DNA of 64,000 nt from contig NW_027362771.1 of NCBI RefSeq assembly GCF_046119375.1, forward strand, positions 623,720,001 to 623,784,000. Direction: 5' to 3'. Below the pieces are notes generated by a model that saw only the letters and a list, made by a program, of their open reading frames with translations, made no database searches and was not told where the DNA came from. The position numbers were made by a program, and so were the translations under genes. Below, piece by piece: positions 6,005 through 64,000 of this stretch (positions are counted from its first letter, which is position 1; the number at the start of each line of letters is the position of its first letter). The stretch is from Phyllobates terribilis. Lineage: Eukaryota.

Positions 6005-6079
6005 GTACCTTTAAAACAATAGAAAGGTATTACGTAGCTTATATGTGGAATTTACAAATAATCTCATGTTCTTCTCTAG

Positions 6080-9106: not shown

Positions 9107-9119
9107 ATTCTATGATTCT

Positions 9120-16835: not shown

Positions 16836-17097
16836 TAACCCAGCCAATAGTTTTGGCCTAATACCACAGTTTGGCCACTCAGCTCTGCTCGGTTACCATC
16901 CATTGTTTTTTTGTGCAAACAACTCCAGAGTTGTGAATTAAGCGACAACTTTAGTTTTTTGTCAGGGCAGGAACAGGTTGGCTCTGAGGACGACGGGTGT
17001 GATAACGCACAGGGTGATGATGATGAGGTCGGAGATCCCACTTACTGTCAACCCACAGTCAGCCAAGAGATGAGGTCAGCAGAGGAGGTGGAGGAAG

Positions 17098-21789: not shown

Positions 21790-23595
21790 GAGTTGTTCAA
21801 TAAAGGGCCCAAAATTAAGATAACATAGATGGGAGAGGTCTCTATGAATAGGAATTCCTAAGTATTTGATACCCTGTGAGGGCCAGGCAAAGGGAAAGTT
21901 GGACTGGATGGAATCCTATATGGATTTGGGGAGGGAGACATCGAGGGCCTCAGACTTCGCTGCATTGATTTTAAAATTTTACCATGTAACAAAGTGATCT
22001 ATTTCAGCCATAACAGCATGGATGGATATATGTGATTGAGTGATATATACTAGGACATCATCAGCAAATAGAGAGCACTTGTACTCGGTGCCTCCCACCT
22101 CAATCCACCTAATATTGGGGTTATGGCGAATTGATGAGAGCAGGTGCTCCATCACTAGGATGTATAAGAGAGGGGACAGAGGACATCACTGCCTTGTCCC
22201 ATTGGTGATTGTGAAAGGTGATGAAAATGTTCTGACGCACCCCCTGGGCCTTGGGACACCCGGAGCCGGACCCTTTTTGGTGGATGCTGGTGGTTGTAGT
22301 CTTCGTGGCGGCGACCCGGTTCCGTGGCTCAGGGCGGTCAAACCAGTGGCGGAACTATTTATGTGGTTTTGATGTTTAAATGTCCGACTACGCCACCCAT
22401 GGATTGCGGTCAGAGTGAACCGCCGCTACAGGGCAGACCGCTGAGGCTGGTGTTGTGGGTGCAGCAGAGCGTAGCATAACTCCCCACGGGAGGAGTATAG
22501 CCTCAGGGCAGTGTATGCGGAGGATGGGGGTGATGGTGCAGGGCAGCAGCAGTAATGACACAGAGTCAGTGATGCAGTTCAGGGCCTTTACTCACAGTTC
22601 TTATTATCCAGACCACGTCTGCAGGTAACGGCTGCCCACGTCGTACTGTGCTCACCAGGTGAGGGGCTCAGACAACTCCCAGATAACTTTGGAGCACTTC
22701 ACAGGACCCCCTTTGTGTGTCCTTTGTCTGGCCTTTCTTACCAACACTTCTGTCCGGCTGCCTCGGGCCTCCTCTTGGTAAACTTGGTGCCAGTTTCCCT
22801 GACCCTATGTGGTGCCTTCCTAGCGGGTGTAGCGAGGGGCTGCGCCACATAAAATGTCAGAGCCTCCGGTTTCTAGCTGAGGGTCGTTTCCTGCCTCCAC
22901 TAGTTCGGGGACCGGTCTCCCCCTTTGGCCTGACCCCTCCACGCAGGTGGATTCGGGCGTGCGGTGGCGACTCGCCCGTCCGCACCCCTGGGATCCCTTC
23001 ATTCCTCGTTCCTGGAGCCTTCTCCGCTCCTCTTCCTTCCTTCTCCCTCTTCCAGGCCTGGGCCTCTGTTACTAGGCCCGCCTCCGGAGCAGAGCTCATG
23101 CAGAGCCCCTGCTTCCTGCCACTTCTGCTCAGACTTCTCTGCACTGAACTAAGATGGTGCCCACCTTTTATACTCCCTTCTCAATGCACCCAGGAACTGC
23201 TTCCTCCCTGCTCCTGCACTACAGGGTTCCCCTTCCTCAGTGTTCCCTCCCCCCACTCCAGCCAGGGACAGGGACTGTCGTGCCCATCTCAGGGGCATAT
23301 TGGTCGCCCTGCCCCACGGCAATGTGGTGTAATGCATGCAGGTGTCGGGTCCTGATCCACACTCCATCCTTACCTGAGAGTGAGATATCACACCTCTGGG
23401 TGAGGTGCAATACGTCTGTAGCAACCGAGCACTCAGGGTGCTACAGTTCCATTTATCTTCAGCCTAGGTGACGTATTGCGATACAGGGCCGTGATTTTGG
23501 CTATAAAAGGGTCCCCTAGACCCCTACCCCAAGCTTTTTAAGAGAATCATATATGGCGTGCCAGGAGACTCTATGGAATGCTTTCTCAGCATCCA
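21790..23595 (-). mobile_element. Decayed L1/Tx1-clade RT fragment, split by a solo LTR
   Basis: Minus-strand translations DAEKAFHRVSW (~23560-23592), GTRQ*CPLSPLLYILVMEHL (~22140-22200) and SLFADDVLVYIT (~22040-22078). Confidence 0.8.
22233..23445 (-). mobile_element. Solo LTR (1213 bp) related to the LTRs of the 43374-48205 element
   Basis: TG...CA termini (minus strand TGTAGCACCC...GGGGGTGCGTCA); 4-bp TSD GTTC; shared terminal hairpins, TATA and AGTAAA. Confidence 0.9.
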
Positions 23596-32002: not shown

Positions 32003-32431
32003 GTAAGGTGACCATTGTCCCCCTTGTTGGAGGAGCAAATTGTGCAATGGAGTTGTTCTTCTTAATCTAAATAGATCCTTGTCTACATATGCCCTTTACT
32101 CACCACATGTTTATGTACACAACTACAATCTTTACACCTCTGTGTTATTATTTCAGCCCGCTTGAATTGGTTCATTCATACAGCAAGGGCCACATAAAAG
32201 CCCATATGTAGCACAAATCAAGATTTGCCAGGTTGGATTATTCCAGTGCTTGACTGTCAAGATTTGATTAGTTGACATGACCAATGTCACTGCTTACCAT
32301 TTATGTATTCATGGTCAACATGGCCACCATATTGATCCACACAGGACAAAACAAAATCCTGATTGTCCACAGGTATCAGAAGGCTACATTGTATTTCTTA
32401 ATAAAGTTATTCTTCTTTCATTTGTCTACAG

Positions 32432-33253
32432 ATAAGTTATTTTTCCACCAGTCCATTCCTCAGCAATAGGAACTTGTTCCCCTCCTTTTTCCGCACAGTA
32501 CCAAGTGACGCGTTTCAATATCGAGGTCTAGCTGAGCTAATTCTGTACTTTGGTTGGACATGGGTTGGGTTACTGGCTTCCGATAATGATTATGGTCAAC
32601 CTGGCATCCAGGTAGTAAAGCAAAAAATAGTCAAAGCTGGAGCTTGTGTGGCCTTCATTGAGAATATCATGACTGGACAACCCAACAGAGGTGCTCCACG
32701 TATCGTTAATGTTATCAAAGATTCATCAGCCAAGGTGGTGCTAGTTTTGTCTTCAGTTTTTGATTTCTTGCCTGTGGTGGAAGAGCTGGTCAAACAAAAC
32801 ATAACTGGGAAAATTTGGATAGCCAGTGAATCATGGTCAACCTCTCCCCTTCTTAACAAAGAAAAGTTCAAACCAGTCTTGGTGGGTACTATAGGTTTTG
32901 CTATTCATGGGGGACAGATGGCTGGATTTGTAGAGCATCTAAACAACTTACACCCCTCAACATCTCCTAATGATCACTTTTTACTTAAACTTTGGGAGGA
33001 GACATTTTCTTGCAAGTGGACCAACCTCCATACTAGAGCTGATGGCGTGCTCAACCAAACCATCAATGAATGTATTAGGGAAGAAAAATTAGAAAGTGTC
33101 ATGGGTAACGTGGACCTTAGAATAAAATTTAATGTCTACACAGCAGTTTATGCCTTTGCGTGGGCCATACAAAACTTGCTGCAATGTGAACCAGGAAAAG
33201 GACCTTTCCTTAATGGTACTTGTGCCAACATCTCATCCTTACATCCTTGGCAG
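32432..33253 (+). CDS. V2R gene B, exon 3
   Basis: 822 bp, open; CAG/GT boundaries. Confidence 0.95.
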
Positions 33254-34009
33254 GTAAGGAAGTTGCACACTTATATTTGTGAATACTAAAGGCATCTGGG
33301 CTCCAACACGTGAGCAGAGATGAGTTCTCGCAAGGGCGTACTGCGACTACAGAAGGTTGAGAGTTAACACCCAAGCCCTGGTGTCTGAGAAGACCTAAAG
33401 GGCTTTTCATCAATTTAGAAGGCACCAGTAATTTACATGCCACATGGTAGGTAGATGCCCTTACAAACTCCCAATTACAACAAAGATAGCTGTCGTCCAA
33501 ATAATAGTTAGGTTGATCGCTCATATGCCAGCTATCTTGCCCGACTCTCCCAAACACGGGTGCAGTTGATTTGCCAAGTGCTCCTGTGTTCTCTAGGAGG
33601 CACCTCCAGCTCAAGATTCAAAGATCAGCAGTTCAAAATCAGATATTCCGTATGTCTGTCAGGTGGCCCCCATGCACATTAGACTGTCAGCCAAACCCGT
33701 CAATATCTGCAGGTTCAGTTGACATTACTCTAATGTGTACAGGGGTTTTTAGACATTTTGCATTGGAGCCCAGTAGGTTCAAGTTACACCTCCAGGTTAT
33801 GCCATAAGCTTTAAAGACTCCAGTAGAGACTTTTGACTCACAGGGTTGGAAAATAGGTTGCAGATTCCTCTACTTCTGAAGAGAGATAGCAGTAGACATT
33901 TCAGTGAGTTTGTGGTGCTTGAGTGAAGAGATGATGATCTCAGGCTTTAAAAATGTTTGTGACTTAATGGATTAGAAAATAAATTAATGAATCATTTCTA
34001 TTTCTTCAG

Positions 34010-34228
34010 CTCCTTCATTATATTAAGACTGTAGATTTTGAGACTAAAGACAAAGCTCACATATTTTTTAACAATAAAGGGGATCCTCCAGCCCTCTACG
34101 ACATTGTAAATTGGCAGCTAAACTCCACTGGTTCCATGGAGCAGAAGATAGTTGGAAGTTTTGATTCCAGTTCTCCAGAAGGGATTCGAATGAAAATTAA
34201 CAATGCAGATATTATATGGAGATCTGAG
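34010..34228 (+). CDS. V2R gene B, exon 4
   Basis: 219 bp, open by manual translation; LLHYIKTVDFETKDKAHIFFNNKGDPPALYDIVNWQ. Confidence 0.93.
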
Positions 34229-34379
34229 GTAGGACATTATATTCTGCAAGCATTTAATCTCACACATAACTAGTTTTGGGTCAGAGTGTGAGAGATTTGG
34301 TACTTTACTTTCTGGCAAACTGAAATATGAGGTTTTGTTTAGCCAAGTCTTTATACAGTGGGTCATTTTACTTACTATA

Positions 34380-34380
34380 G

Positions 34381-34431
<51 letters not shown>

Positions 34432-37400
34432 GTGCACATGGCACTTTACATGTGAAAAAGGGGTATTCATACAAGAACAATTACAATAATCTTGAACACA
34501 ATGTGATAGCGACTGGTACAGGAGGAGCGAGGACCCTGCCCACGAGGGCTCACAATCTACAAGGGATGGGTGAGGATACAGTAGGTGAGGGTAGAGCTGG
34601 TCGTGCAGCGGTGGTTACTGCAGGTTGTAGGCTTGTCAGAAGAGGTGGGTCTTCAGGCTCCTTTTGAAGGTTTCCACGGTCGACGAGAGTCTGATGTGTT
34701 GGGGTAGAGAGTTCCAGAGTAGGGGGGGAAGCACGGGAGAAATCTTGTATGCGATTGTAGGGGGAGGAGATAAGAGGGGAGTAGAGAAAGAGATCTTGTG
34801 AGGATCGGAGGTTGCGTGCGGGTATCTAATGGGAGACTAGGTCAGAGATATATGGAAGAGATAGGTTGTGAATGGCTTTGTATGTCATGGTTAGGGTTTT
34901 GATCTGGAGTCTCTGAGCGATGGGGAGCCAGTGAAGAGATTGACAGAGAGGAGAGGCCGGGGAATAGCGGGGGGGACAGGTGGATTAGTCGGGCAGCAGA
35001 GTTTAGGATGGATTGGAGGGTTGCGAGAGTGTTGGAAGGGAGGCCACAGAGCAGGAGGTTGCAGTAGTCAAGGCGGGAGATGATGAGGGCGTGCACTAGT
35101 GTTTTTGCAGATTCATGGTTGAGGAATATGCGGATCCGGGAGATATTTTTGAGTTGGAGTCGGCAGGAAGTGGAAAGGGCTTGGATATGTGGTTTGAAGG
35201 AGAGTTCAGAGTCCAGGGTTACCCCAAGGCAGCGAGCTTGAGGGACTGGGGAGAGTGGGCAGCCATTGACATTGATAGATAGGTTAGTTGGGGGGGTTGA
35301 ATGAGATGGCGGAAAGATGATGAATTCTGTTTTGTCCATGTTAAGTTTTAGAAATCTAGCAGAGAAGAAGGATGAAATAGCAGACAGACATTGTGGGATT
35401 TTGATTAGTAAGGATGTGATATTGGGTCCAGAGAGGTAGATCTGTGTATCATCAGCATAGAGGTGACAATGAAAGCCATGAGACTCTATGAGCTGTCCCA
35501 GGCCTAAGGTGTAGAAGGAGAAGAGCAGAGGTCCTAGAACTGAACCTTGGGGGACACCGACAGATAGGGGGCGAGATTAGGAGGTGGTGTGTGAGTGGGA
35601 GACACTGAATGTCCTGTCTGTTAGGTATGAAGATATCCAGGATAGGGCCAAGTCTGTGATGCCAAGAGATGAGAGGGTTTGTAGTAAGAGGGAATGGTCC
35701 ACTGTGTCGAAGGCAGATGACAGGTCTAGGAGGAGGAGGACAGAGTAGTGTCGCTTAGATTTGGCGGTTAGTAGGTCGTTGGTGACTTTAGTCAGTATAG
35801 TTTCAGTAGAATGGTGCAGTCGGAAACCAGATTATAGGCGGTCGAAGAGGGAGCAGGAGGAGAGGTGGGAGGACAACTCAGAATGGACGTGTTGTTCCAG
35901 TAGTTTTGAGGCATAGGGGAGAAGTGATATGGGGCTATAGCTAGACAGAGAGGATGGGTCAAGGGAGGGCTTTTTGAGGATGGGTGTGATTGAGGCATGT
36001 TCGAAGCATGAGGGGAAGGCACCAGTTGTTAGTGACAGGTTGAAGAGGTGGTCTAGGGGTGGGATGAAGACAGTGGTAAGGTTTGGGATGAGGTGGGACG
36101 GGATTGGGTCAAGTTTACAGGTGGTGAGGTGTGATTTGGAGAGTAAAGAGGAAAGTTGATCTTCTGTAATGGTGGAGAAGGTGGTTTTGGAGGAAGAGGG
36201 TTGCGTAGGTGTGGGGAGGGGCTGTGGGGGCTTTAGGCAAAAGCTTTGTCTGATGGTGTCAATCTTCTGCTTGAAGAATGAGGCAAAGTCTTCGGCTGAA
36301 ATAAGAGGAGAGGGAGGAGGCACTGGGGGACGGAGGAGAGAATTGAAGGTGTTGAATAGTTGTTTGGGGTTGTGAGACAGGGAGGATATGAGAGATGCGA
36401 AGAATGTTTGTTTTACTGCAGTGAGTGTGGACTTGAAGGTAGTGAGGGACTGTTTGAAGTGCTCATTGGAGTGGGACCTTTTCCATCTACGCTCAGCAAC
36501 CCTGGAGGCCCCTCGCAGTTCTTTAGTTAGGCTGGTGTGCCAGGGTTGTCTGTTGATTGTGCGAGCCTTGGAATGTGTGAGGGGGACGACCGAATCGAGA
36601 GCTGCAGCTGTTGTGGTGTTGTATAAAGTGGCAGTAACATCTGCATCATGTAAGGAACTAATGTCTGTAAGGGGGAGGAGGGATTCAGAGAGTGAGTGTA
36701 GGTCAAGGTGTTTGAGATTTCTGCGAGGGTGTGCAAGTTTGTGGAGTGGGGATTGTTGCCCTGGAGAGGAGAGGGTAGAGAATGTAAGTAGTTTGTGGTC
36801 AGAGAGAGGGAGAGGTGAGTTAGAGAGGTTAGATAGGGAGCAGAGACGGGTGAAGATTAGGTCCAGTGTGTGGCCGTCTTTGTGGGTGGGTGTGGAAGAC
36901 CACTGGGTAAGACCAAAGGATGAAGTGAGGGATAGAAGCTTAGAGGCAGCTGAGAGGGAAGTGTCAATGGGGATCTAAAAGTCGCCCATGAGGATAGTGG
37001 GGATGTCAACGGAGAGGAAATGAAGTAGCCAAGTGGTGAAGTGGTCAAAGAAAGTGGTGGTTGATCCTGGGGGGCGGTAGATGACAGCCAGTTGGAGGTT
37101 GGAGGGGGAGTAGATGCGCACGCAGTGCACTTCAAAAGAGGGGAGAGTAATTGAGGGCGGCAGTGGGATATGGGTGAAGGAGCAGTTATCTGAGAGGAGG
37201 AATCCTATTCCTCCACCGTGCTTGCCGGTGGGGCAGGGGATATGGGAGAGGTGGAATTCGCCATACGAAAGTGCAGCAGGAGAGGCCGTGTCAGAGGGGG
37301 TAAGCCAGGTTTCAGTGATGCCGAGGAAGGAAAGCTTGTTAGTGATGAAGAGGTCGTGAATGTAGGAAAGTTTGTTGCAGACGGAACAAGCGTTCCATAG

Positions 37401-37460
37401 AGCTCCTGTTAGAGGGACTGGGGAAGCGGGGGATGGGCGGATGGGTATGAGGTTAGAAGG
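34380..37460 (-). mobile_element. L2-clade LINE, near-complete but frameshifted ORF2, in intron 4 of gene B
   Basis: (AAT)n tail at 34380-34429; APE endonuclease remnant (LWNACSVCNKL..GITETWL); PISLLPYASKLLE; [26 protein letters not shown]. Confidence 0.9.
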
Positions 37461-38635
37461 GTTACGAGAGTTTCATTACGAGATGGTTCATTTGTATTCT
37501 TAGCTAATACAATAATGGCCCATTGAGCCTTAATTTTTTAAAGTAATGAGGTGTAACCATAGGGAATAAAGACATTGTGGTCAATCTGGTCCTTGAAGTC
37601 TAGAAGATTTCTACCATATATGAAGAGTCTGGTGCTATAAATGGTACATGATGATTGGATAAAGAAGCCTAATAATAATTTTCAGTTGGAGCCCAGGAGC
37701 TCTATGTTACGCCTCTTAGAAAAAAGAACTTTTGTCCAAGATTTACACAACGGGAGGACAAATAGACTTAAATTTTGCATCAGAATTTTTTGTTGTCATT
37801 TTGTTTTTATGCAGCAGCGAGACAAGGTTTCCTGGTTTTGCGGGAATTTATAATTAATCTCCTCTACCATTGCTTGATCCTTATTGTAGAGCTAGATAGC
37901 TCACTTGAGGGACATCGATAGCCCCCTGTCTCCCATTACTTTCTCTACATATCTTTATAATTCTTATTTATAACACATACAGGGAATTCAGGGTGGAGGG
38001 AAATGTGGAGTGTTTGCAGTTCCCAATGCAGGGCCACATGTCCATTACATTTTTAGAGTGTCCTATGGCTCCTGAAGCTTTTCTCCTGGCAGCTTCCATC
38101 ACTCCATGCTTCACATGTCTGAAGATGGTCATGCACATTTGATTATTGTAAGAAGACCATGTGTTTGAAGGTGTTTCAACCTTCACTGATGGCAGATGCC
38201 ATGGAAAATAAGAATCGCTGTTGGATTTTAGCATGTTGAATCGTCAAGGAATATAAACTGCTGTTAGAGTTGTCTTCTAGTGATTTACTCCCTTTTCGTG
38301 ATTCAGAATATCACGAAAACTAAACCAAACAAGAGTGCGTTTGTATTGCAGAGTAGGGAAGAACAGCTGTTAGGTGGACGGTTATGTGAACTGTATGGCC
38401 AATTTCAGAGTTTCTTTCATCCATAAATTTGGTCTCCCAAATTAAATGGAGCCCTAAGCACCTGCCTATACTATCTGCCTGTTACACCCCCATCCCCATA
38501 GTTAAAGGTCAATACTCTAAAAGATTTGCCAGAAAACTTACAGGTGAAATTTCAAGCTCTACCATTTATGTCTCTAGTACCTTGTTCTTTAGTTTTCAGT
38601 GTGTAATTGTCTATATGGTGAATTCATATATTTAG

Positions 38636-38759
38636 ACTCCTCAATCAAAATGCAGTCCAAGTTGTCCTTTGGGATCCCGAAAGGCAACAATTCCAGGAAA
38701 GCCCATGTGCTGCTTCGAGTGTGTCCAGTGCCCAAAAGGAGAGATTGCAAATATGACAG
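38636..38759 (+). CDS. V2R gene B, exon 5
   Basis: 124 bp; TPQSKCSPSCPLGSRK..CCFECVQCPKGEIANMT. Confidence 0.93.
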
Positions 38760-38842
38760 GTACCATAAACACACAGTCAGAAAGTGTCATGTATCTTATG
38801 TGTGTAATTTACAAACAATTTGATTCCCATGTTCTTCTCTAG

Positions 38843-39762
38843 ATGCTGTAGACTGCCAAAAATGCTCTTGGGATACTTGGCCCAATACCCAGCAGGACAT
38901 GTGCTTACGAAGAGCCATTGAATTTCTCTCCTATGATGAAGCTATGGGTATCAACTTGGCAGCCCTGTCTATTATTTCATCTCTCATCCCCATTGGAGTT
39001 CTAAGAATCTTCATTTGTTACAACACAACACCGATAGTTCGAGCCAATAACTGGTCCCTTAGCTGTCTTCTCCTCGTTGCTTTATTTTTCTGTTTCCTTA
39101 GTTCATTAGCTTTCATTGGATATCCACATCCTGAGAAGTGCCTGTTGCGTCAGGTGGCATTTGGCTTGGCTTTTACTCTCTGCATCTCTTGCGTCTTGGC
39201 CAAAACCATAACAGTGGTTATTGCTTTCACGGCCACCAAGCCTGGGACTAGTTTGCGACGATGGACTGGGGGAAAGTTGTCCTACTCTGTTGCTGTGACT
39301 TGTGTTCTCATCCAGATATCAGTCTGTGTGACTTGGCTTTCTTACTCTCCTCCATTTCCCGAGTATGACACACAGACTCCTTCTAGTGTCATAATTCTTA
39401 ACTGTAATGAGGGGTCTCCTTTTGCATTTTGGGTTATGTTGGGGTATTTGGGTCTTCTGGCCACTGTCAGCTTCATCGTGGCCTTCTTGGCAAGGAGACT
39501 TCCTGACAGTTTCAATGAGGCCAAGTACATTACATTTAGCATGTTGGCCTTCCTTTGTGTCTGGATTTCCTTTATCCCAGCAACTCTGAGCTCCCGTGGG
39601 AAGTACACAGTGGCCATGGAGATCTTCGCCATCCTTTCTTCCAGTTGGGCCATTGTTGTTTGTATATTCTTACCCAAATGCTTCGTGATATTGTTTAGAC
39701 CTGACTTGAATGTAAGGCAAAATCTAATGAGAAAAGAGTTTGGCCAAACTAGAACATCCTAG
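38843..39762 (+). CDS. V2R gene B, exon 6 (7TM); the six exons sum to 2622 bp = 873 aa plus stop
   Basis: 920 bp to TAG; all exon phases are compatible. Confidence 0.96.
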
Positions 39763-39930: not shown

Positions 39931-41982
39931 ATCTCAACAACATGTGATCACTTCACCTCTACCAGCAAACGCTACTAGACATGGCATAAGAAGAGGTAAA
40001 ATATGAAGTAAATCTGAGTGTTTAACATATAAATACTGTATATGTGTAAAAGTATACTTATCTGATATATTCTATACACTGTGAACAGGGTCATATTTGA
40101 TGTACATACTACCGTGCACACTTTAAATGGTCATGCCTCCTTCAAAGTTCCCATACACTTTAGATAGTTCAATGTGTTTGGGGTTCTTTACTACTATTAG
40201 ATGAACGAGCCAATATTAATGGGTTAGGCTGACAGACTAATGTGTATGGGGGCCCCAGATAGATGAGTGTCTTCGAATGAGATAAATATCCAGACAGATA
40301 AGGATCAGACAACAAGTCTTTTTGTTTTCTAAGAGAGAAGTTGCTACTAAAAAAGTCTGACAGTGGCTCTCATAGAGAACACAGAGGCACTCAGCATATT
40401 GAACGCTTCTGTGTATGAGAGAATTGAGCAAGATAGTTGCCAGTCAAATAATTGGTAGAAACACTGGTCAGCCGACAGCTATCAAAGGTGTTTTGGGTGC
40501 TTCAGTGAAGTACTTGTTCAGCTGACAACATATGACTTTGTTCAGATGGCTGTATGTTCAGTCTTTGGGTTGTCCATCTGTGCAATGGAAAGCACACTAA
40601 CACCATTAGTACGGGAATACAGCTCTAGAACCACCATCAATACAGGAATACAGAGCCAGAACCATCATCAGTTCATGAATACATCTCCAGATCCACCATC
40701 AGTACATAAATATAGTACTAAAACTACTATCAGTACAGGAATGCAGCAACAGAACCACCATCAGTAAAGGAATAGAGCACCAGAACCACCAGATGTACCT
40801 GAATACTTCACCAGAACTACAATCAGTACAAGAATACCGCACTAGAAACAGGGTCGTAGCGTTCGAGATGGGGGCTTGTCGACACCAGCGCCTATTTCAA
40901 CCAGATGTCCATCTTCGGATGCACATTCAGTGGAAATATGTTGCGCACAGAGACACACCAGCACCCTGTACCACAATACACGGCACCAGGCAATCAAAAG
41001 CCAGCAGCTGACGTTGGAGTGCCAGTTATGGGCGACACATGGCTGTGACATTGTGTGCTACCCATGATGGCAGCGCCAGCATCATCTGCTGGCCTCTGCA
41101 CCAGTGAAGTAAGAGAATTTCTTTTGAACCCTTTTGGCTTGAGCCTGTTTTCGCCTTCGCGACCAGGCCAATTTTTTCAATTCTGACCACTGTCACTTTA
41201 TGAGGTAATAACTCTGGAATGCATCAGCGAAATCAGACTCATTCTGAAACTTTTTTCGTTACACATTGTGCTTCATGATGGTGGTAAAATTTGTTGAATA
41301 CAACTAATATTTATTTCTGAAAATATCAAAAATTTGGTGAAAATTTTGCAATTTTCAAATTTTCAAATATTATGCTCTTAAAGCAGAGAGTTATGTCACA
41401 CAAAATAGTTAATAAATAACATTTCCCACATGTCTACTTTACATCAGCAGAACTTTTGAAACATTTTTTTTTTTTTAGAAAGTTATAATGGTTAAAAATT
41501 GATCAGCAATTTCTCATTTTACCAACAAAATTTACAACACCATTTTTTTTTGGACCACATCACATTTGAAGTGACATTGAGGGGCCTATATGACAGAACA
41601 TAAACAAAAAAAACACCATTCTAAAAACTTAACCCCTCAAAGTGCTCAAAACCACGTTAAAAAAGTTTATTAACCCTTCAAGTGCTTTACAGGAATTAGC
41701 GGAACATGGAAGGAAAAAAATGAAAGTTTTACCTTTTCCCACAAAAATGTTACTTTAGCCCCAAATTTTTTATTTTCACAAGGGTAACAGAAGAAAATGC
41801 ACCACAAAATTTGTTGCGCAATTTCTCCTGAGTACACCGATACCCTATACGTGGTGGAAAACTACTGTTTAGGCCAGGGGTGGGCAATTAATTTTCCCGA
41901 GGGGCCACATGAGAGACCGTGACTGTTGGGGAGGGCCGAACCAATAGGCTGAAATTAATTCTGCTCAATATTAATATTAACA

Positions 41983-43225
41983 TGAGCATGAGCCCCACAC
42001 AGCCTCCCCATGTCCAGCATGAGCCCCACAAAGCCCCCCATGTCCAGCATGAGCCCCACACAGCCCCCCCATGTCCAGCATGAGCCCCACACAGCCCCCC
42101 ATGTCCAGCATGAGCCTCACACAGCCCCCAAGTCCAGCAAGAGCCCCACACAGCCCCCCCCATGTCCAGTATGAGCCACACACAGTCCTCCCGTGTCCAG
42201 CATGAGCACCACACAGCTCTCCTGTGTCCACCATGAGCTCCACACAGCCCCCCATGTCCAGCATGAGCCCCACACAGCCCTCCGGTGTCCAGCATGAGCC
42301 ATACACAGCCCCCCATGTCTAGCATCAGCCCCACACAGCCTCCCATGTCCAGCATGAGCCCCACACAGCCCTCCCATGTCCAGTATGTGCCCCACAGAGT
42401 CCTCCCGTGTCCAGCATGAGCACCACACAGCTCTCCTGTGTCCACCATGAGCCCCACACAGCCCCCTATGTCCAGCATGAGCCCCACACAGCCCTCCCGT
42501 GTCCAGCATGAGCCATACACAGTCCCCCATGTCCAGCATGAGTCCCACACAGCCCTCCCAAGTCCAGCATGTGCACCACCCACCCCCCATGTCCAGTATG
42601 AGAGCTCGAGAGGCTCCTCATGTCCAGCATGACAGCCCTTCCAAGTGTCCAGCATGACAGCCCCCCAGTGTCCAGCATTAAAGCCCCCCAGTGTCTAGCA
42701 TTGAAGCCCCCCATGTCCAGCATGAGAGCCCCCCCTGTGTCCAGCCTGACAGCCCTCCCTAGTGTCCAGCATGAGAGCCCCCCCTGTGTCCAGCATGAGA
42801 GCCCCTCTGTGTCCAGCATGACAACCCTCCCTAGTGTCCAGCATGAGAGCCCCCCTATGTCCAGAATGAGAGCCCCCATGTGTCCAGCATGACAGCCCTC
42901 CCTAGTATCCAGCATGAGAGCCCCCCCTGTGTCCAGCATGAGAGCCCCCCTGCGTCCAGCATGAGAGCCCCCCCTGTGTCCAGCATGAGACCCCCCTGTG
43001 TCCAGCATGACAGCCCTCCCTGTGTCCAGCATGAGAGCCCCCCACTATGTCCAGCATGAGAGCCCCACTATGTACAGCATGAGAGCCCCCCTGTGTCCAG
43101 CATGAGAGCCCCCACTGTGTCCAGCATTAAAGCATCTCTTGTGTCCAGCATTAAAGCCCCCCTGTGTCCAGCATCAAAGCAAAGCCGTCCCTGTGTCCAG
43201 CATTAAAGCCCCCCCTGTGTCCAGC
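41983..43225. repeat. GTCCAGCATGAG-core minisatellite; ~30-bp units grading into ~20-25-bp units
   Basis: The repeated AGCATGAGCCCCACACAGCCCCCCATGTCC unit shifts to AGCATGAGAGCCCCCCTGTGTCC after ~42610. Confidence 0.92.
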
Positions 43226-43373
43226 ATATACTTACTTCACTCCCCGTTTCCCTACGCTCCTGTCTCTGATGCACTGACTCTCCACAGTGTGCAGGCTGAT
43301 GCCATTGTGTCAGCTGTTTCTAACGCTGATTGGTGGAAGAGGGAAGTGGCGGCCCCTCCTCCACCAATGCATT

Positions 43374-44612
43374 TGATGCGCCCCTGGGCCTGTGCTGAGT
43401 AGCGTTGCGCACGTGGGGGCCTACCCGGAGCCGGATCTGAGAGGGGTAGTAGTTTCGTGGCGGTGACCCGGTCCGTGCCCAGGGAGTCAAACTGAGCGGC
43501 AGTATTTAGCAGTAGATGTTAGAATGTTCGACTACGCCACCCGTTGAATGCGGTCATGAGACCGCCGCTGCAGGACAGTCCACTGAGGCCGGTGGTACGG
43601 ATGTGCAGCGTGGATGGTATAACCCCCAACGGGAGGGGTATGGCCTCAGGGCAGCAGATGTGGATGATAGTGGTAGTGATGGTGCAGCAAAGAAGCTCAG
43701 AGACGTGTGGTGCAGTTTCAAGGCTTTTACTCACAGGTGTTGCTCCGGTCACTTCGGCCAAGAGTGACCACCCGAGCCGTGCTGCGTCCACCAGGTGCGG
43801 GACTCGGCCAACTCCCAGGCAGTTCCAGAGCGTGGTCCTGAGCTCCCCTCTCTTCCTTTCTACTGGCCGTCCTCACCAGGGACCCACCTATGTCCGGCTT
43901 CCTCGGGCCTTATGGGGCAAAACCTCTCTCCGGTTTTCCTGACCCTATGTGGCGTGCCTTCCTGGTGGATGTGGCGAGGGGTCGTGCCAAAGCTTGACCA
44001 CGACCTCCGGTTCCTGGCTAAGGATGATTTGCCTCCACCAGCTTGGGATCCGGTACCCTTCTCTGCCAACCCTTCACCCGTTTTAGTTCACTCGTGGGAT
44101 CTCAGGGTTCCTTCTGCTTGCGTCTCTGGGCCTTTCCTAGTGTTCCTCTTCTTCCTTCCCTCTCTTTGCTTCAGGCCTGGCTCTGGAGCTGGGCCCAGAT
44201 GGAGCCACAGCTCCCCCTCAGCCCTCTCTGGCTGAGTTCCTCTCTCCACTCCTCCAGGCTGAACAGACCCTGTCTTAAGATGGTGCCCACCTTATATACT
44301 CCCTCTGACACCCGAGCCCAGGTCACAATGTAACCATGGGCTCCTCCTATGCCCAGAGTCCCTCCCCTGACTGCTCCTACACTACTGGGATGTTCCTCCC
44401 CCCCTCCCACTCCAGCCAGGGACAGACGCTGTCGTACCTGCACATCTATCTGGTGGGAGTACCGTTGTTCTGTCCCCCGGAAATGGGATGAGTGTAGTGC
44501 ATGCAACTAGCTGAGCTCAGTCCCACCCTCCATCCTTACACGGGAGTGGAATACCACACCTCTGGATCGAGGTGCAATACCCCTGTAGCAGCCGAGCCCT
44601 CGGGGTGCTACA
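43374..44612 (-). repeat. 3' LTR
   Basis: Direct repeat of 46967-48205 (offset 3593); AGTAAA poly(A)-like signal at 43726-43731. Confidence 0.95.
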
Positions 44613-44621
44613 TTCCCCCCT
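44613..44621 (-). other. Polypurine tract
   Basis: AGGGGGGAA directly abuts the TG of the 3' LTR on the minus strand. Confidence 0.85.
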
Positions 44622-45102
44622 GGTAAATCACAGCACGTCCTCGGGCTGTAAAAGAATAAAACAAAACATACAAAATTTTTTTTTTTTTTTTTTAAAGTGC
44701 ACTTACATATAAAATATATCAACTTTTTTTTTTTTTAGCATAATATAAAACCTTTTCATATAAAACATTCTTGACTAATACGTCCGTGATCCCTGGCCAC
44801 CGTGCAACTTGTGACCAGGTAAGTGCAACAGTCACTAGAGAAAAACAGTTCTTTATAAAACCAGAAGGGGGCGCTTTAGGAAGCGCAACTATTTACAGGG
44901 TATGGCCGCTCTCAGTCCTCGGCCAGTGGGGATAGGGGAATGGCTGCTCACAGTCCTCAGCCTGGTAATGGATAGGGGCACACAGGAAACAGTTCTTTAA
45001 CAGTCCCACACTAGTCCCAACGGGGACCACACTCCATTTAGCAACATGTCAAATACCCTTACGGGTAACTTATCTACAGTACTTTGCTTATGCTACTCCC
45101 CT

Positions 45103-46611
45103 TTAGTAGCGATGTCCTCTCCTTGTCTCCTCCTGAGGGTAGTCTTCAGAACCGTCCGGGTCCTCTTGATCTTCCTCATACTGCAACTCCTCCTCCGTCA
45201 ACCGGTGCACGTGAAGGGCGTATGGTCCTTTGGCACACTGGTGCCGGGTGAAGGTGACCTCATCACCCGGGTAGAGGTCACGTCCTCGGTGTCCCTCCGG
45301 CAGGTGGCTCTCAACATCCCTGCGGGTAACAAAGACATCGCCGGGGGTTCTGTGATCCCGGATAAAGCCCCAGCCGTGCTCCATTTGAAACTTTATTACA
45401 GTCCCGGTGGCGCGGGGACCGTGGGCCGCACGGCGGCTTCGTCGGGTCCGGCTTTTCTGCTCCGCGCTTTGGACCTGCAGCCGCTCCTCGCGGACCCGCC
45501 TCTCTCGCCGTTCCCTCTGAAAGACTTCCAGTTGTTGTCGGCAACACTCCTCACGTTGGGCTGCGGCCGCCCGGGTCTCTTGGGTGAACCCCATGAGGTC
45601 TTCGCCGGTGGGGTCCCATACAAATTGGGCCTCCTCCAGCGGGAGCGGAACAATTTTGGCGGGTGCCGGAGCCGGGATCAGAGGCTCACACAGAGGCCAT
45701 TCCTTTCGGAGTCGGGGGTTGACGTACTCCGGTGGCCAAACGAAAGGCAGCCCATCCGGGCTAGTATGCTGCGCAAACAGATCTTCGCCCAGGGGCAGCA
45801 CTGTGGAGGTTGAGGGCGCGGTGGGGGCAGCGGCGCCCGGATTCACCAGGCCTTGCGACCAGGCCGGTGGCACTCTGAAGGTGAAGGGTACTGTGGAGAC
45901 GGCGGCGCCCTGGGGTACTCGGCCCTGCGACCAGGCCGGGGGCACTTCCTCTTTTGCCGCGCTCAGGGTCAAGGGGCGTGGCGTAACAGAGGGTGCGACC
46001 GCGGCTCCTGCCGCTTGAGGCCTAGTTGGAAGCAGCGGCGGTGCGGCAACGGGTGCGGTGAGTGGAACTTCGGGCTCTGCGACGGGGAGCTGGGGCAGGC
46101 TTACGGCTACGGGGCTCGGGGTGATGACGTCCCCATTACCTGCTTCCATCTCTGCGGCTCCCTCCGCGGCGTCGTCTCCGGCCTCCGTTCCTCCTGCACC
46201 ATCCTCAGGGGCAGACACGCTCCACGTTGCGGGTGGCATCCTCTGCTGGCGGGTTCCAGCCTGCTGGACCATCTCTCTCCTCCACTCGGCCAGTGCTTCT
46301 TGCTGCACTCGGGCCATCTTCCGGGCCAAGGCCTCCAGCGCGGTCTGTGCACGCTCCCGATTTCTGGGGAGCTGTGCCAGGATCTCCACCAGGCCTTCTG
46401 GGGTGGCAGCCTGCAACAGGTTCCGGACCACAGGTTCGGTGCTGATTGACTCTTCCTCCATCTCCGGGTGCGATCTGTCCAGACTCCTCCAGGCCGCACC
46501 CATCTTCTCTGTTTTGTTCTGTATCCGCCCCCATTGAGGGTGGTCCCGTGGCAACTTAGTGATTGTCAGTTCCAGGGGCAGCCCTCTCACGCTCATGGAC
46601 ATTTCTATCAT
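45103..46611 (-). CDS. 502-aa protein (from the first ATG; the frame is open to 46941) with coiled-coil, Pro/Ala-rich linker, basic helix, C-terminal cold-shock domain and acidic tail
   Basis: CSD at ~45199-45408: TGTVIKFQMEHGWGFIRDHRTPGDVFVTRRDV...LYPGDEVTFTRHQCAKGPYALHV, with RNP1-like GWGFI and RNP2-like VFV. No CCHC, protease, RT or integrase motifs seen. Confidence 0.85.
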   Translation of the reverse strand: MIEMSMSVRGLPLELTITKLPRDHPQWGRIQNKTEKMGAAWRSLDRSHPEMEEESISTEPVVRNLLQAATPEGLVEILAQLPRNRERAQTALEALARKMARVQQEALAEWRREMVQQAGTRQQRMPPATWSVSAPEDGAGGTEAGDDAAEGAAEMEAGNGDVITPSPVAVSLPQLPVAEPEVPLTAPVAAPPLLPTRPQAAGAAVAPSVTPRPLTLSAAKEEVPPAWSQGRVPQGAAVSTVPFTFRVPPAWSQGLVNPGAAAPTAPSTSTVLPLGEDLFAQHTSPDGLPFVWPPEYVNPRLRKEWPLCEPLIPAPAPAKIVPLPLEEAQFVWDPTGEDLMGFTQETRAAAAQREECCRQQLEVFQRERRERRVREERLQVQSAEQKSRTRRSRRAAHGPRATGTVIKFQMEHGWGFIRDHRTPGDVFVTRRDVESHLPEGHRGRDLYPGDEVTFTRHQCAKGPYALHVHRLTEEELQYEEDQEDPDGSEDYPQEETRRGHRY

Positions 46612-46943
46612 TGCAGTCTCTGCTGGTGGGGGCGGTTTCCGCTTTTGGCGCCATTCCTGGACCTGGCCCACGATGGGAGGTGGCCTCTTGCCACCCTCTG
46701 GCACGCCCACAATGGAGTCCGCTCTGCCAGGGCGGGAAATCGTCTCAGATGGCGGGAATCGTCTCCTTATGGCGGGAAACTCCGTGGATGGCGGGAAAAG
46801 GCTGCAGATGGCGGGCAAACGGCGGGAAACGACCCGAGATGGCGTCCGATGGCGGGAACCCTCTGGAATTGGCGGGAGACTCCTTTTTACGGTAAATGTG
46901 AACTTTTCTTCAGGCACGCAGTACCCGTCGGTTGCGGGCACGT

Positions 46944-46962
46944 AATCCTGCCGACTACGCCA
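46944..46962 (-). promoter_or_regulatory. Primer-binding site for tRNA-Ser
   Basis: TGGCGTAGTCGGCAGGATT is complementary to the 3' 19 nt (AATCCTGCCGACTACG-CCA) of vertebrate tRNA-Ser(AGA/TGA type); it lies 4 nt from the 5' LTR. Confidence 0.9.
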
Positions 46963-46966
46963 AAGT

Positions 46967-48205
46967 TGACGCGCCCCTGGGCCTGTGCTGAGTAGCGTTG
47001 CGCACGCGGGGGCCTACCCGGAGCCGGATCTGAGAGGGGTAGTAGTTTCGTGGCGGTGACCCGGTCCGTGCCCAGGGAGTCAAACTGAGCGGCAGTATTT
47101 AGCAGTAGATGTTAGAATGTTTGACTACGCCACCCGTTGAATGCGGTCATGAGACCGCCGCTGCAGGACAGTCCACTGAGGCCGGTGGTACGGATGTGCA
47201 GCGTGGATGGTATAACCCCCAATGGGAGGGGTATGGCCTCAGGGCAGCAGATGTGGATGATAGTGGTAGTGATGGTGCAGCAAGGAAGCTCAGAGACGTG
47301 TGGTGCAGTTTCAAGGCTTTTACTCACAGGTGTTGCTCCGGTCACTTCGGCCAAGAGTGACCACCCGAGCCGTGCTGCGTCCACCAGGTGCGGGACTCGG
47401 CCAACTCCCAGGCAGTTCCAGAGCGTGGTCCTGAGCTCCCCTCTCTTCCTTCCTACTGGCCGTCCTCACCAGGGACCCACCTATGTCCGGCTTCCTCGGG
47501 CCTTATGGGGCAAAACCTCTCTCCGGTTTTCCTGACCCTATGTGGCGTGCCTTCCTGGTGGATGTGGCGAGGGGTCGTGCCAAAGCTTGACCACGACCTC
47601 CGGTTCCTGGCTAAGGATGATTTGCCTCCACCAGCTTGGGATCCGGTACCCTTCTCTGCCAACCCTTCACCCGTTTTAGTTCACTCGTGGGATCTCAGGG
47701 TTCCTTCTGCTTGCGTCTCTGGGCCTTTCCTAGTGTTCCTCTTCTTCCTTCCCTCTCTTTGCTTCAGGCCTGGCTCTGGAGCTGGGCCCAGACGGAGCCA
47801 CAGCTCCCCCTCAGCCCTCTCTGGCTGAGTTCCTCTCTCCACTCCTCCAGGCTGAACAGACCCTGTCTTAAGATGGTGCCCACCTTATATACTCCCTCTG
47901 ACACCCGAGCCCAGGTCACAATGCAACCATGGGCTCCTCCTATGCCCAGAGTCCCTCCCCTGACTGCTCCTACACTACTGGGATGTTCCTCCCCCCCTCC
48001 CACTCCAGCCAGGGACAGACGCTGTCGTACCTGCACATCTATCTGGTGGGAGTACCGTTGTTCTGTCCCCCGGAAATGGGATGAGTGTAGTGCATGCAAC
48101 TAGCTGAGCTCAGTCCCACCCTCCATCCTTACCCGGGAGTGGAATACCACACCTCTGGATCGAGGTGCAATACCCCTGTAGCAGCCGAGCCCTCGGGGTG
48201 CTACA
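46967..48205 (-). repeat. 5' LTR
   Basis: TGTAGCACCCC...GGGGCGCGTCA; TATATAAG box at 47884-47891. Confidence 0.95.
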
Positions 48206-51200
48206 CATTCACCGTGGATTGAGACCACGGATTGAGACAGCGGTGACGGTGTGCAGGCGGGCAGTGACGGCGAGCGGTGACGGCGTGCGGTGCAGTGCGG
48301 CCCGTGGGCCACTGTTATCAGCCCTTCGGCTGTCTCGGTCCGCGGGCCGGACTGGAACAGCCAGAGGGCCAGATGTGGCCCGCGGGCCGCACGTTGCCCA
48401 GCTCTGGTTTAGGCGCATGGCAGGACTCAGAAAGAAAGGAGCACCATTTGACTTTTGGAATGCATAATTGGCTGGAATCGATAGACACCATGTTGCATTT
48501 GGAGGGCCCCTGCAGTGCCTAAATAGTGGAAATCCCCCACAAGTGACCCTATTTTGAAAACTAGACCCCTCAAGGAAGTTATCTAGATGTATGATGAGCA
48601 CCTTGAACCCTCAGGGGCTTCACAGAATTTTATCGTGTTGAGCAGTGAAAATAAAAAATCGCATTTTTTCCCACAAAAATGTTGTTTCAGCCCCAATTTT
48701 TTTTATTTTCACAAGGGTAATAGGAAGACATGGAACCCACAATTTGTTGCGCAATTTCTCCTGAGTACGACGATACCCCATATGTGGTGGAAAAGTACTG
48801 CTTGGGCGCACGGCAGGGCTCGGAAGGGAAGGAGCGCTATTTTGGCTGGAATAGGTTGCGGACATCATGTCACATTTGAAGAGCCCCTGACATGTCAAAA
48901 CAGCAAAAATAAACAAAAGTGTCCCCATTTTGTAAACTACATCTCAAGAAATTCATCTAGGGGAGTAATGAGTACTTTTAACCCTCAGGTGATTCGCAAA
49001 CTTGAATAACATTGAGCTAAGTAAATGAAATATTACTATTTTTTCCTCTAAAATGTTGCTTTGACCTCAATTTGCAAGTTGCAATTTTCAAAAAGGGTAA
49101 TAAGAGAAAACTAACTACAATTTCTCCTTAGTACATCAATACCCCATAAGTAGAAAACTGCTTTTGATTCATAGTGCAAAGCTCAGAAGGGAAGGAGCGC
49201 AATATTGGAGTTCAGATTTTGCTGGAATGGTTTCAGGGTGTCACCAGAGGTCCCAGAACAGCAGAAACCCCCCATAAGTGACACCATTTTACAAACTACA
49301 CATCTCAATGAATTCAAATAGGGGTGCAGTGATCATATTGACACCACATGTGACTCACAAAAATTTATACCATTGGGCAGTGAAGAAAAAATAATTACAT
49401 TTTTAACACAAAAAAATTGTTTTAGCCCCAGCTTTTACATTTTCACAAGGGGTAATGGGTAAAAATGGTGCCAAAATGTGTCACACAATTTCTGATGAGT
49501 GTGGCAATACTCCATATGTGGCTGTACAGTATTGCTTAGCCACACAGAGAGACTCGGGAGGGATAGAGATCTATTTGCCTCCTAGCACGCAGATTTTCCT
49601 AGAATAGTTTGCAGACTCCATATACAGTTCCCCTACATGCAATAAGAGCAGAATCCACCCTCAAGTGACCCCATTTTGGAAATTATACCCCTTTGGGAAT
49701 TTATCTACAGGTGTAGTGACGATTTTGACTCAATGAGTGATTTCCAGAAACAAGCAGCAGTGGATGTTGCCGAGTGAAAACTCCAAACTTCCGTTGTAGT
49801 GACCAGTACGTTGTAGTTACCAGTACATTATAGTGACCTGTAAGTTATACTGACCAGTACGTTATGCCCAGTTCATGCTTATGGAGACATGCACCCATAA
49901 ATTAAGAGGGCTCTCATCGCTACAGGAATGCCAAACATGTGTACGCTAAGTGTGGTTTAGACACACTGGGGCTCAGAAAGGAGGGGCGGCATTTGGATTT
50001 GGGAGTGCAGAAATTTGTTGGATTTCTTTTTGGGGGCAAGGAGCCATAGCGCTTTTCCAGAGTCTTTGTACTACCAGTAACATGGAAGCCCCCTATATTT
50101 CCGAGTTTTTTTGTGGATTGAGTTGAAGTTTTTGTTAGAAATATTTTACATAACATTTTGGATCACATTTATCCTGCGTTCTACGTCTACACTGAGCTCT
50201 TACATCGGGGTTTCCATCTAAATCTCAGAGTGACTTGATTCAGATGAAACCCCTGAGGGATCCATTGATTATTGTTATGATCTGCTACAAGAACTAAGGA
50301 AAGATAGGAAAACTGTCCCTACAATAGGACTAAGCTGATTCCCTACGATGCAGCGGGCAACCTGTTCCTTGTGAACAGACCCGCCTTCGTCCTCAGCTAG
50401 TCTGAACGCAGACCTATAGATATAAGGGAGGGGTCCCTAAAAGTACTAAGGCCTGGGACAAAATTGGACACCTCCTTGCAGAAGTTGTAGCGGAGCAAAA
50501 AGACAAACAGACAAAAATACTTAGAGGTCCAAGGACCACGCAAACTATAGAGATAGGTACAAAGCACCTGGCTAGATTAAGAGTCAAAGTAACACTGAAG
50601 TCCAACAAAGCCAGAAGGGCGGAGCTGGAATAAATAGGCAGCAGGTCACGTGACCACAAAATAGAAAAAAAACTAACAGGAGGGTTCTAACAATTATAAT
50701 GAGGCAGCAAAGTTACTCTGGACTCAGTCTTCCCTCTGTTCAGCGGTATCCTTCCTATCAGAAGTGCACAAAACTGTGGGAGACGGCACTTTTATGCAAG
50801 CCTAAAAAGATGGACACTGCCAGATCACAGGTCAGAAGGCATCCACAGTGCCTCCATCTGCCTCATTATAGGGAATCTTCCGCCGGTTGTTCTGTCTGAA
50901 TCACATATTTCAGAAGTTTACATGGAGACCCCGATGTATGCGCTGAGCGCAGAGAAAATTTGCGCCAAGACTTACTGTGATCTTTGGGAGGCAGAATGAA
51001 CAAATCAACAGCAGGTGAAGAATTGGTTTTATTTATTTTTTTACACCTTTCTTAATGTGGTATAAGTGATTAGACAACTTTATTCTTAGAGTCGCTGCAA
51101 TTACAGCAATACAAGATTTATATTGTTTTTATGTTTGGTAGCTGTCAAACACTAATAGACGCTTTTTTTTTTACTAAAACAATTTTTTGCGTCTCCATAT

Positions 51201-62400: not shown

Positions 62401-62510
62401 AGGATGGGGGCAGCACAAATACCAGGAGGGGGGCAGCACACACCAGCATGGGAGACCATATACCAATAAAAATGCTCACCACCCGGGCGTAGAACGGGTT
62501 CAATAGCTAG
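59484..62510 (+). mobile_element. Non-autonomous Helitron consisting mostly of a G-rich minisatellite
   Basis: A|TCTATAATATA start; ACCCG...CGGGT hairpin then CTAG|T end at 62507-62511. Confidence 0.85.
59545..62390. repeat. 30-32-bp minisatellite (GGGGATGAGGGGTGCCATGCATACCAGGATT), roughly 90 units
   Basis: Period of 31 seen directly (CATACCAGG at 60661 and 60692). Confidence 0.95.
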
Positions 62511-63574
62511 TAATATATAAGGGGGGACGGTGTGAAGGTAATATTTTGTAGGAGAGGAGGTCATATATCGTAAGAAGGACAGTGTGGGGTCACTTTTTGG
62601 GGCAGAGAGCGCAGTGAGGAGCAATTATTTATTAGGGCACAGCAGGGGCATCTATATTTGTTTAGGTGGCATTATAATGATACTTTTCATGTTTAAAGGC
62701 TCCGTGTCCGGATGTGCTGCAGAAGATTGGAGAAGAGGGACGTCTGCGGAGACGAGCTATAGCGTCGGGACCAGATGAAGAAGAAAAGGATGAGAAGAAC
62801 CTCAGAGGAGATGTCACCTAGAAGATACCTGGATCTGAGGCTGCATTTACACTGGTCAATCGCGATGCTTAAAAGACCACTGACCGGTTTTATGAAGCCG
62901 ATCGGCAGTCGTTTATTAGTAGGTCTAGACAGGACAACAGCGCTTTCATGTGCACAAAGCCATCCTTAATATGATCGCTCTGTGCACAGAGAATAAAAAT
63001 GTTCTCGGCAGCACATGTTTACACAGGATGATCTGCTGCCAAGAACAAAGATATTTAAGTAAGCTTAAAGGCAATCTGTCACCACATTTGACCTATCTAA
63101 ATAATTGATATGGGCATATCGCTTATAGACTGCTGCAAATACCGGCTTCAGAGAAAGGTGCCGGCGATATTCATTACTACTTGTAAAGGCTTTATCAAGA
63201 GCAGTACTACTTCCTCTCTGGAGCTTGAGGACGTATGCACATTTGTCTGGAGTTTGTCTACAGCTAAGCAATTTCCCCCTGTTTGTCCACCCCTGTTGTC
63301 TATAGTGTTTAGTGGAGATCGACTAGTGCTCATATCCTCCCTTCCCTAGCCTTAGCCATACGCCAGGGAAAGACAGACAGGGTGAGGCACGCGTGCGGCG
63401 ATTGGTGAAGGACGTTAGGGGAGACAGAGTGACGCTAGATCAACCTAGGAGGTCTCCACTCCCCCTTTTCCCTAGTGTCTGGGCTCCCTTTCCCTCTTCC
63501 CTTTGTGTTGCACTAAGTCTTTCCCACACCTTGCGTGACACCATGATTGTGGAGCCTATTGAAACAGACTAAGG

Positions 63575-64000
63575 GAATTTTTTAGACACTTAATAAGCCT
63601 TTTGCAGGTGTTTTTTGTTAATTATTCTAATTTACTGAGATAATAACTTTTGTGTTTTCATTGGCTGTAATCCATAATCATCAAGATTAATAGAAATAAA
63701 CACGTGAAATAGATCCCTCTGTGTGTAATGACTCTATATAATAGATCCCTCTGCGTGTAATGACTCTATATAATAGATCCCTCTGCGTGTAATGACTCTA
63801 TATAATAGATCACTCTGTGTGTAATGACTCTATAATAGATCCCTCTGTGTGTAATGACTATATAATAGATCCCTCTGTGTGTAATGACTCTATATAATAG
63901 ATCTCTCTGTGTGTAATGACTCTATATAATAGATCCCTCTGCGTGTAATGACTCTATATAATAGATCCCTCTGTGTGTAATGACTCTATATTATAGATCC
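63575..64000 (+). repeat. Tc1-type subterminal sequence with a 32-bp tandem expansion running off the window end
   Basis: AGATCCCTCTG(T/C)GTGTAATGACTCTATATAAT at 63711, 63743, 63775 and onward (~9 copies); the Tc1 assignment comes from recalled resemblance only. Confidence 0.7.

Follow-up and report, generated by a model that had tools for sequence, protein, structure and literature searches.

Introduction

Long terminal repeat (LTR) retrotransposons that cannot move on their own are normally non-coding or carry gag only. LARD and TRIM elements, VL30, MaLR, maize Bs1 and the oncogene-transducing retroviruses keep their cis signals intact, lack pol and are mobilized by helpers, some of them with captured host sequence. 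LARD, TRIM and VL30 are non-coding, the open reading frame (ORF) of MaLR is gag-derived, and transduced oncogenes are short-lived; to our knowledge, no member of this set is a long-lived family with an RNA-binding gene under purifying selection. Here we analyze an LTR element of the frog Phyllobates terribilis whose only gene encodes a protein with a cold-shock domain (CSD). It occupies the minus strand of a 64,000-nucleotide stretch, hereafter the window (RefSeq assembly GCF_046119375.1, contig NW_027362771.1, positions 623,720,001 to 623,784,000 of the forward strand). We consider it reasonably probable that the element is a satellite LTR retrotransposon that depends on a helper, and that the Y-box-type domain it has captured protects the RNA of the element or helps to package it.

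Its interior holds a maintained coding gene, unlike LARD, TRIM and VL30; its ORF has no gag homology, in contrast to gag-only elements such as MaLR and Xenopus 1a11; and it lacks the gag capsid and the protease, reverse transcriptase, RNase H and integrase (PR-RT-RH-IN) pol of autonomous Ty3/Gypsy elements, which its candidate helper has. The Y-box proteins YBX1-3 combine a near-invariant CSD with a long basic/acidic C-terminal tail. The CSD of the element is about 30% identical to that of YBX1/2 and the ORF ends in a 30-residue acidic tail, so it is not a Y-box gene. Hepatitis delta-type satellites likewise have a helper-dependent genome and one helical RNA-binding protein of their own; this is an analogy alone, as sequences and replication chemistry are unrelated, and we claim no homology.

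Two described systems come closest. Xenopus has LTR elements that lack pol homology and carry one ORF, and in both respects these frog elements resemble ours (PMC4585706, available part). One of them, 1a11, is described there as Gag-like, the copy numbers given are tens to hundreds, and the elements are presumed immobile. The Phyllobates family, by contrast, numbers tens of thousands of copies that are young, its ORF is selected and is not gag, and it has a candidate helper. The available part of that paper contains no occurrence of cold shock or CSD. Endogenous retroviruses of birds captured CSDs repeatedly, which the authors suggest to be adaptive (PMC12287698, available part). Those 46 elements are retroviral (ERV-A/B and ERV-G), two table rows give near-host CSD scores (E of ~1e-24 to 1e-25), and that portion of the report holds neither a selection test nor a pol-less CSD-based family; in ours, the CSD protein is the sole gene and far diverged, and the partner is Ty3/Gypsy. 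A literature search at the level of titles and abstract openings, outside Repbase and Dfam, turned up no description of a family that lacks pol, has a selected CSD gene as its basis and comes with a helper; transposable-element libraries in the supplements of frog genome papers could hold the family unnamed. Neither cold shock nor non-autonomous occurs in bioRxiv 10.1101/2023.11.06.565769, and neither cold nor non-autonomous in the available part of PMC6278860.

An LTR element with one gene

The preliminary description of this locus, made from the sequence alone, had listed twin 1239-bp LTRs with TG..CA ends, a CATT duplication, a tRNA-Ser primer site, an abutting polypurine tract and a TATA box, and all of these are present. 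The two LTRs differ by 9 mismatches and 0 gaps (99.27% identity) and enclose an interior of 2354 bp. The features of the element are as follows.

43370..43373, no strand: left target-site duplication CATT, element flank
48206..48209, no strand: right target-site duplication CATT, element flank
46967..48205, minus: 5′ LTR, 1239 bp; U3 of ~345 nt, long R and U5 of ~330 nt, as predicted from the TATA and AGTAAA positions
43374..44612, minus: 3′ LTR, 1239 bp, mismatched with the 5′ LTR at 9 positions
47885..47891, minus: TATA box of the 5′ LTR, putative promoter; TATA-like motif in 64/70 copies
43726..43731, minus: AGTAAA, putative polyadenylation signal of the 3′ LTR; same LTR position in 71/71 copies and in 3/3 helper LTRs checked
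46769..47324, minus: cis module (end of R, U5, primer site, start of leader) homologous to an autonomous gag-pol family; 67-87% identity to five helper copies, and U5 tree
46944..46962, minus: tRNA-Ser primer-binding site, 18-19 nt, beginning 4 nt past the 5′ LTR
47122..47132, minus: second, partial primer-site-like motif within U5, ~170 nt ahead of the true primer site; 66/71 satellite copies and 7/14 helpers (strict pattern)
46612..46962, minus: leader, open and in frame with the ORF, ATG-poor, probable packaging region; omega 0.945 and ATG depletion
45103..46611, minus: single ATG-initiated ORF, 502 aa; omega 0.264 over residues 1-472, first Met in 44/44 open copies
46240..46437, minus: N-terminal helices, residues 59-124, the last one of 44 residues; AlphaFold2 pLDDT ~70-91, omega 0.22, no gag homology
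45418..45651, minus: F-x-W-D motif and long charged helix, residues 321-398; helix 344-391, omega 0.155
45205..45408, minus: CSD, residues 402-469; Pfam, fold, omega 0.051, best profile scores YBX1/YBX2
44613..44621, minus: polypurine tract abutting the 3′ LTR; the same run precedes helper LTRs

The TATA box lies ~315 nt inside the LTR, and the purine tract reads AGGGGGGAA. The same genome has tRNA-Ser genes whose 3′ ends are complementary to the primer site: ARAGORN called Ser(AGA) and Ser(TGA) at 2/8 loci, which bears out the earlier tRNA-Ser assignment, while among five other loci with the motif one was called Ala, four gave no call and none (0/5) was called Ser. The partial primer-site copy of U5 is also found in the other LTR (43529-43539, minus strand) and could be a second tRNA contact. 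Rfam gave no match for the element. Separately, a pyrimidine tract ending in CAG just ahead of the purine tract (~44645-44680, minus strand; 67/73 copies) resembles a splice acceptor, with no matching donor or spliced form shown.

The only Pfam domain of the ORF is a CSD (PF00313; E of 2.2e-8, 34.3 bits against a curated cut-off of 27). In an AlphaFold2 model computed on a 14-row alignment, the helices at residues 59-124 are followed by a Pro/Ala linker that is disordered and by a helix of 48 residues (344-391), and residues 400-470 form a barrel predicted with confidence. The Foldseek matches listed were CSD proteins, with CspA at E of 7e-7 and a root mean square deviation of 1.4 Å, and a viral structure library yielded generic CSD/OB folds alone. 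The C-terminal CSD of the preliminary description thus stands, as does its statement that the interior holds no gag or pol motif: Pfam detects the CSD alone, and none of the 73 family copies described below has a pol match. A profile of ten family proteins scored 51 bits with YBX1/YBX2, 42 with CspA, 25 with LIN28 and 18 with CSDE1. Because these scores are best for YBX1/YBX2, and because the loop after RNP-2 has approximately the Y-box length in alignments, the CSD is likely a host-derived capture of Y-box origin. The RNP-1 aromatics and the Phe of RNP-2 are retained in 42-43 of 43 copies. Outside the CSD, the F-x-W part of the F-x-W-D motif recurs in Ranitomeya proteins. The ESM Atlas returned nothing for residues 1-130 and only sub-0.9 leads for residues 320-480; shallow word-index protein searches gave 2, 3 and 1 hits.

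A large and young family

The preliminary description had suggested a family from solo LTR kin, and one such relative is present in the window:

22233..23445, minus: solo LTR of a diverged relative; 66% identity, own 4-bp duplication (GTTC on the plus strand)

The family proved to be far larger. A search of the frog's own genome (10.57 Gb) gave 10,315 candidates; among the 40 scored, 40 interiors were full-length at 96-100%. The pattern formed by the purine tract and the LTR start matched the genome 26,583 times and the reversed control 0 times, so the element is not a one-off. At ~4.9 kb each, ~26,600 copies amount to ~130 Mb or 1.2% of the assembly, solo LTRs not counted.

To obtain copies without selecting them for similarity to the window, we picked loci by position along the first 28 Mb of contig 1; of 74 such loci, one lacked the pattern and was set aside. 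The remaining 73 copies comprised 71 with the primer site, 66 with an LTR pair and, according to an automated parser, 55 with a matching 4-bp duplication. The LTR pairs have a median identity of 99.75% (range, 98.4-100). A full CSD is found in 65/73 copies and a CSD-containing frame of at least 480 codons in 57/73; pol is found in 0/73. With no pol yet recent amplification, the element is a non-autonomous LTR retrotransposon. Whole proteins are ~54-95% identical to that of the window and the CSDs mostly 82-100%. LTR identity this high across such diverged subfamilies indicates that many of them have been active recently. The window copy itself would be about 1-4 million years old if a rate of 1-3e-9 per site per year is assumed, without calibration.

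Purifying selection on the ORF

We fitted a codon model to 43 open-frame copies (42 and the window, with one broken-CSD copy removed). The ORF is under purifying selection, strongest in the CSD. Omega, the ratio of nonsynonymous to synonymous substitution rates, is 0.264 overall; by residues, it is 0.42 (1-60), 0.22 (61-125), 0.48 (126-320), 0.155 (321-398) and 0.051 in the CSD, for which the likelihood-ratio statistic against neutrality (2dL) is 577. Shifted and reverse frames over the ORF gave omega >1. With the frame counts of the sample, these values agree with an ORF that is intact and selected in most copies, a point on which the preliminary description had staked its reading. Within the ORF, 36% of indel lengths are multiples of three against 26-28% outside; alignments between diverged subfamilies are noisy, and this comparison was not used.

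These data bear on the idea that a host mRNA was transduced recently and rides along neutrally as the ORF, still intact only through the youth of the copies. The copies are indeed young, and A-runs occur in the 3′ untranslated part of 32/73. The CSD omega and its departure from neutrality speak against a passenger, as do CSDs that stay 82-100% identical in most subfamilies whose whole proteins have diverged to 54-95%, and a layout kept in a second family at 39% identity (see below); we regard a neutral passenger as hardly credible.

The open frame extends 636 codons, from U5 across the primer site, with 117 codons ahead of the first ATG. Omega for these 117 codons is 0.945, which argues that the leader is not constrained as protein, and the 502-aa call therefore stands; the leader is predicted to be constrained as RNA. 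A reading of 632-636 codons as the selected protein was rejected, as omega is 0.80-1.03 for the codons that precede the first ATG. In 41/44 copies there is an ATG in the same frame 33 codons before the called first Met, and it may be used as a start. The 1248 nt from the putative transcription start to the first Met contain 2 ATGs, against an expectation of 12 and a count of 25 on the antisense strand. The 43 copies have a mean of 4.2 upstream ATGs against 12.2 expected, and helper leaders are likewise depleted. This depletion is consistent with translation by scanning of the full-length RNA.

An abundant Ty3/Gypsy family as likely helper

The exact 18-nt primer site occurs 69,769 times in the genome. 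The first 30 of these loci comprised 14 elements of the CSD type, 14 of a gag-pol type, 1 without a CSD and 1 unassigned. Elements of the gag-pol type (L091-L104) have LTRs of ~1 kb, 98.2-99.9% identical in 13/14, interiors of 5.3-6.0 kb and 4-bp duplications. They share the LTR end and the purine tract of the satellite and show no trace of the CSD protein. Their pol frames reach 1446 codons, and two copies that we scanned encode a PNMA-like/CCHC gag and a PR-RT-RH-IN pol, i.e., they are Ty3/Gypsy. The helper gag matches Pfam PNMA and by gag alone can be likened to the Gypsy12_DR/PNMA-related Ty3/Gypsy gag group (PMC3406341, available part), a likeness that concerns the helper and not the satellite. 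The junction pattern of this family matched the genome 40,184 times; with the 26,583 satellite junctions this nearly sums to the number of primer sites, so the two types make up most of them. Satellite and ~40,000-copy helper together are a real contributor to this 10.6-Gb genome, of which the helper is one of the major components.

Homology between the two types runs from the AGTAAA signal through U5 and the primer site up to ~190 nt into the leader, at 67-87%; over the remaining LTR beyond this module, satellite and helper do not match save at the terminus. We built a midpoint-rooted tree from the U5 of 43 satellites and 13 helpers; in it, the satellite sequences sit with one helper subgroup inside the helper diversity. 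The cassette joins helper-type leaders at three different points, in one lineage just past the gag start with the first few gag codons kept. We infer that these variable joins arose by template switching between co-packaged RNAs. The abundant Ty3/Gypsy family, which has primer site, U5, leader and purine tract in common with the satellite, is likely its helper; autonomous partners of this kind were what the first look at the locus had proposed to search for.

The interior might instead be a decayed gag, or an ordinary Gypsy element after deletion, given that the helper is the source of U5, primer site and leader and that one lineage still begins with gag codons. The candidate was rejected. BLASTP against helper gag gave a best E of 2.5 and profile-profile comparison a probability of 0.3%, neither the model nor the fold matches listed show a capsid fold, and pol is missing from all 73 copies. 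The suspicion of a gag fold hidden in the N-terminal helices thereby lost its ground. We consider this explanation largely refuted by the sequence and fold comparisons, and very improbable.

The shared module would also suit an interference factor that binds helper RNA or Gag and either diverts particles to the satellite or damps the helper, in the manner of a defective interfering genome. In some lineages the cassette takes the place of gag from its start or close to it, and the modeled helices could bind a partner. The helper still outnumbers the satellite, with young LTRs, and no gag-like segment was found; such a role for the protein is improbable.

Action of the protein in cis or in trans

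A pol-less family that keeps a selected, host-derived RNA-binding gene implies a function for it, either in competing for the helper machinery or in evading germline control. How non-autonomous elements make up for the advantage that helpers have in cis is an old question, which thus becomes testable. As to the life cycle, it is very probable that the RNA of the element is packaged, reverse-transcribed from tRNA-Ser and integrated by helper Gag and Pol, and that the ORF is translated by scanning of the full-length RNA. Helper Gag would package the satellite RNA via the shared leader, helper reverse transcriptase would prime on tRNA-Ser, and helper integrase would make the 4-bp duplication; scanning would proceed along the ATG-poor leader. 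The balance tips slightly toward a protein that binds single-stranded RNA via its CSD and acts preferentially on the RNA that encoded it. It would coat this RNA and stabilize it, mask it, in the manner of Y-box proteins, in germline ribonucleoprotein particles, or pass it on to helper capsids, and the conserved helices would supply oligomerization or partner binding. Preference for its own RNA would offset the cis advantage that the helper has from making its own Gag.

We examined the fate of CSD deletions in a tree of 67 copies, leaving out 4 chimeric or rearranged copies and 2 without the primer site. The 6 CSD-deleted copies represent 6 separate origins (single clade rejected, p-AU of 7e-5), and 4/6 deletions arose at one short direct repeat. 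Because these recurrent deletions founded no clade in the sample, there is a hint that CSD loss is easy yet does not spread, which would favor a benefit in cis.

Several points weigh against a satellite protein that serves its own RNA. A lineage without the CSD persists: L105 and L152 are 84% identical to each other, each with young LTRs, have interiors of 1587 and 1551 bp and a full helper-type leader, and retain a frame of 195-212 codons that holds just the CSD end and the C-terminal tail. Because this lineage propagates without it, the CSD appears to be an advantage and not a strict requirement in cis. In alignments, the Trp before RNP-1 and the His of RNP-2 are replaced in the element CSD. 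We take these two to be conserved RNA-contact residues of Y-box/Csp domains, and because of their replacement, nucleic-acid binding may be weak or altered. Repeated U5 exchange with helpers is not proven by the tree, because monophyly of the satellite U5 was not rejected (p-AU of 0.064). Finally, the omega estimates come from open-frame copies only, and the positional sample is confined to the first 28 Mb of one chromosome.

The first two of these points would suit the same satellite with a protein acting in trans, which would counter host silencing or compete with host Y-box proteins on germline RNAs. All tRNA-Ser elements, the helper included, would be aided, and the protein would be selected via bursts in cells expressing a master copy. 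Satellite and helper are both very abundant and young at once, and Gypsy RNA is reported to be high in poison-frog ova (PMC6278860, available part). Pure action in trans should, however, favor CSD-deleted cheaters, and the recurring deletions founded no clade; moreover, the CSD is kept in 65/73 copies. We judge action in trans to be rather unlikely, and keep the satellite protein acting on its own RNA as the preferred reading.

An older family and related proteins in other frogs

A second, more decayed family in the genome is ~39% identical over the ORF, with the same order of parts. Its 12 best loci have the primer site in 8/12 cases, the U5 region in 11/12 and the downstream purine-tract/LTR region in 7/12. 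Searching 1.84 billion representatives with a profile yielded 142 hits. Among the 29 that we named are family-like proteins of Ranitomeya variabilis, R. imitator, Anomaloglossus baeobatrachus and Bufo bufo, one of them annotated "Y-box-binding protein 2-A-like." The 29 also include unnamed sequencing-run contigs and Phyllobates terribilis hits that are probably not independent of the window. Most remaining hits of the 142 appear to be ordinary CSD proteins. Several frog gene models labeled "uncharacterized," "CSD domain-containing" or "Y-box-like" are thus probable copies of the element.

Three gene models (P0003, P0010 and P0123) fuse pieces of the family to a Harbinger-type transposase, a zinc-finger array and a serine protease; they are probably annotation chimeras or exonized insertions. 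P0002, P0003 and P0010 were not counted as cross-species evidence, since the genome of the window itself encodes a part of P0003 letter for letter.

A wider scenario, which we put forward tentatively and with some doubt, is that of a long-lived satellite clade across hyloid frogs, from poison frogs to true toads. Its own Y-box-derived, cis-acting gene would win helper capsids or hide the RNA in germline granules, the cassette would re-couple to new helper leaders by recombination, and the pair would add measurably to genome gigantism.

Other features of the window

Exons of two tandem class C G-protein-coupled receptor genes (ANF_receptor, NCD3G and 7tm_3 domains) lie at 3237-6996 and 32405-39759 on the plus strand; we take these genes to be vomeronasal type 2 receptor-like. 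The element lies ~3.6 kb past the transmembrane exon of the second gene. A 798-codon open frame with a BED zinc finger (17074-19467, plus strand) is probably a hAT-type transposase. Long interspersed nuclear element (LINE)-like sequences comprise a 626-codon frame with RVT_1 (7338-9215, minus strand) and a second fragment without a Pfam match (35835-36974, minus strand). Nested inverted repeats and long 30-32-bp tandem arrays occupy 10780-14180 and 59500-64000. Beside the element there is a minisatellite of 23-31-bp units (41900-43200), and on its other side a short GC-rich end resembling an inverted repeat (48200-48400); the element possibly inserted inside a miniature inverted-repeat transposable element.

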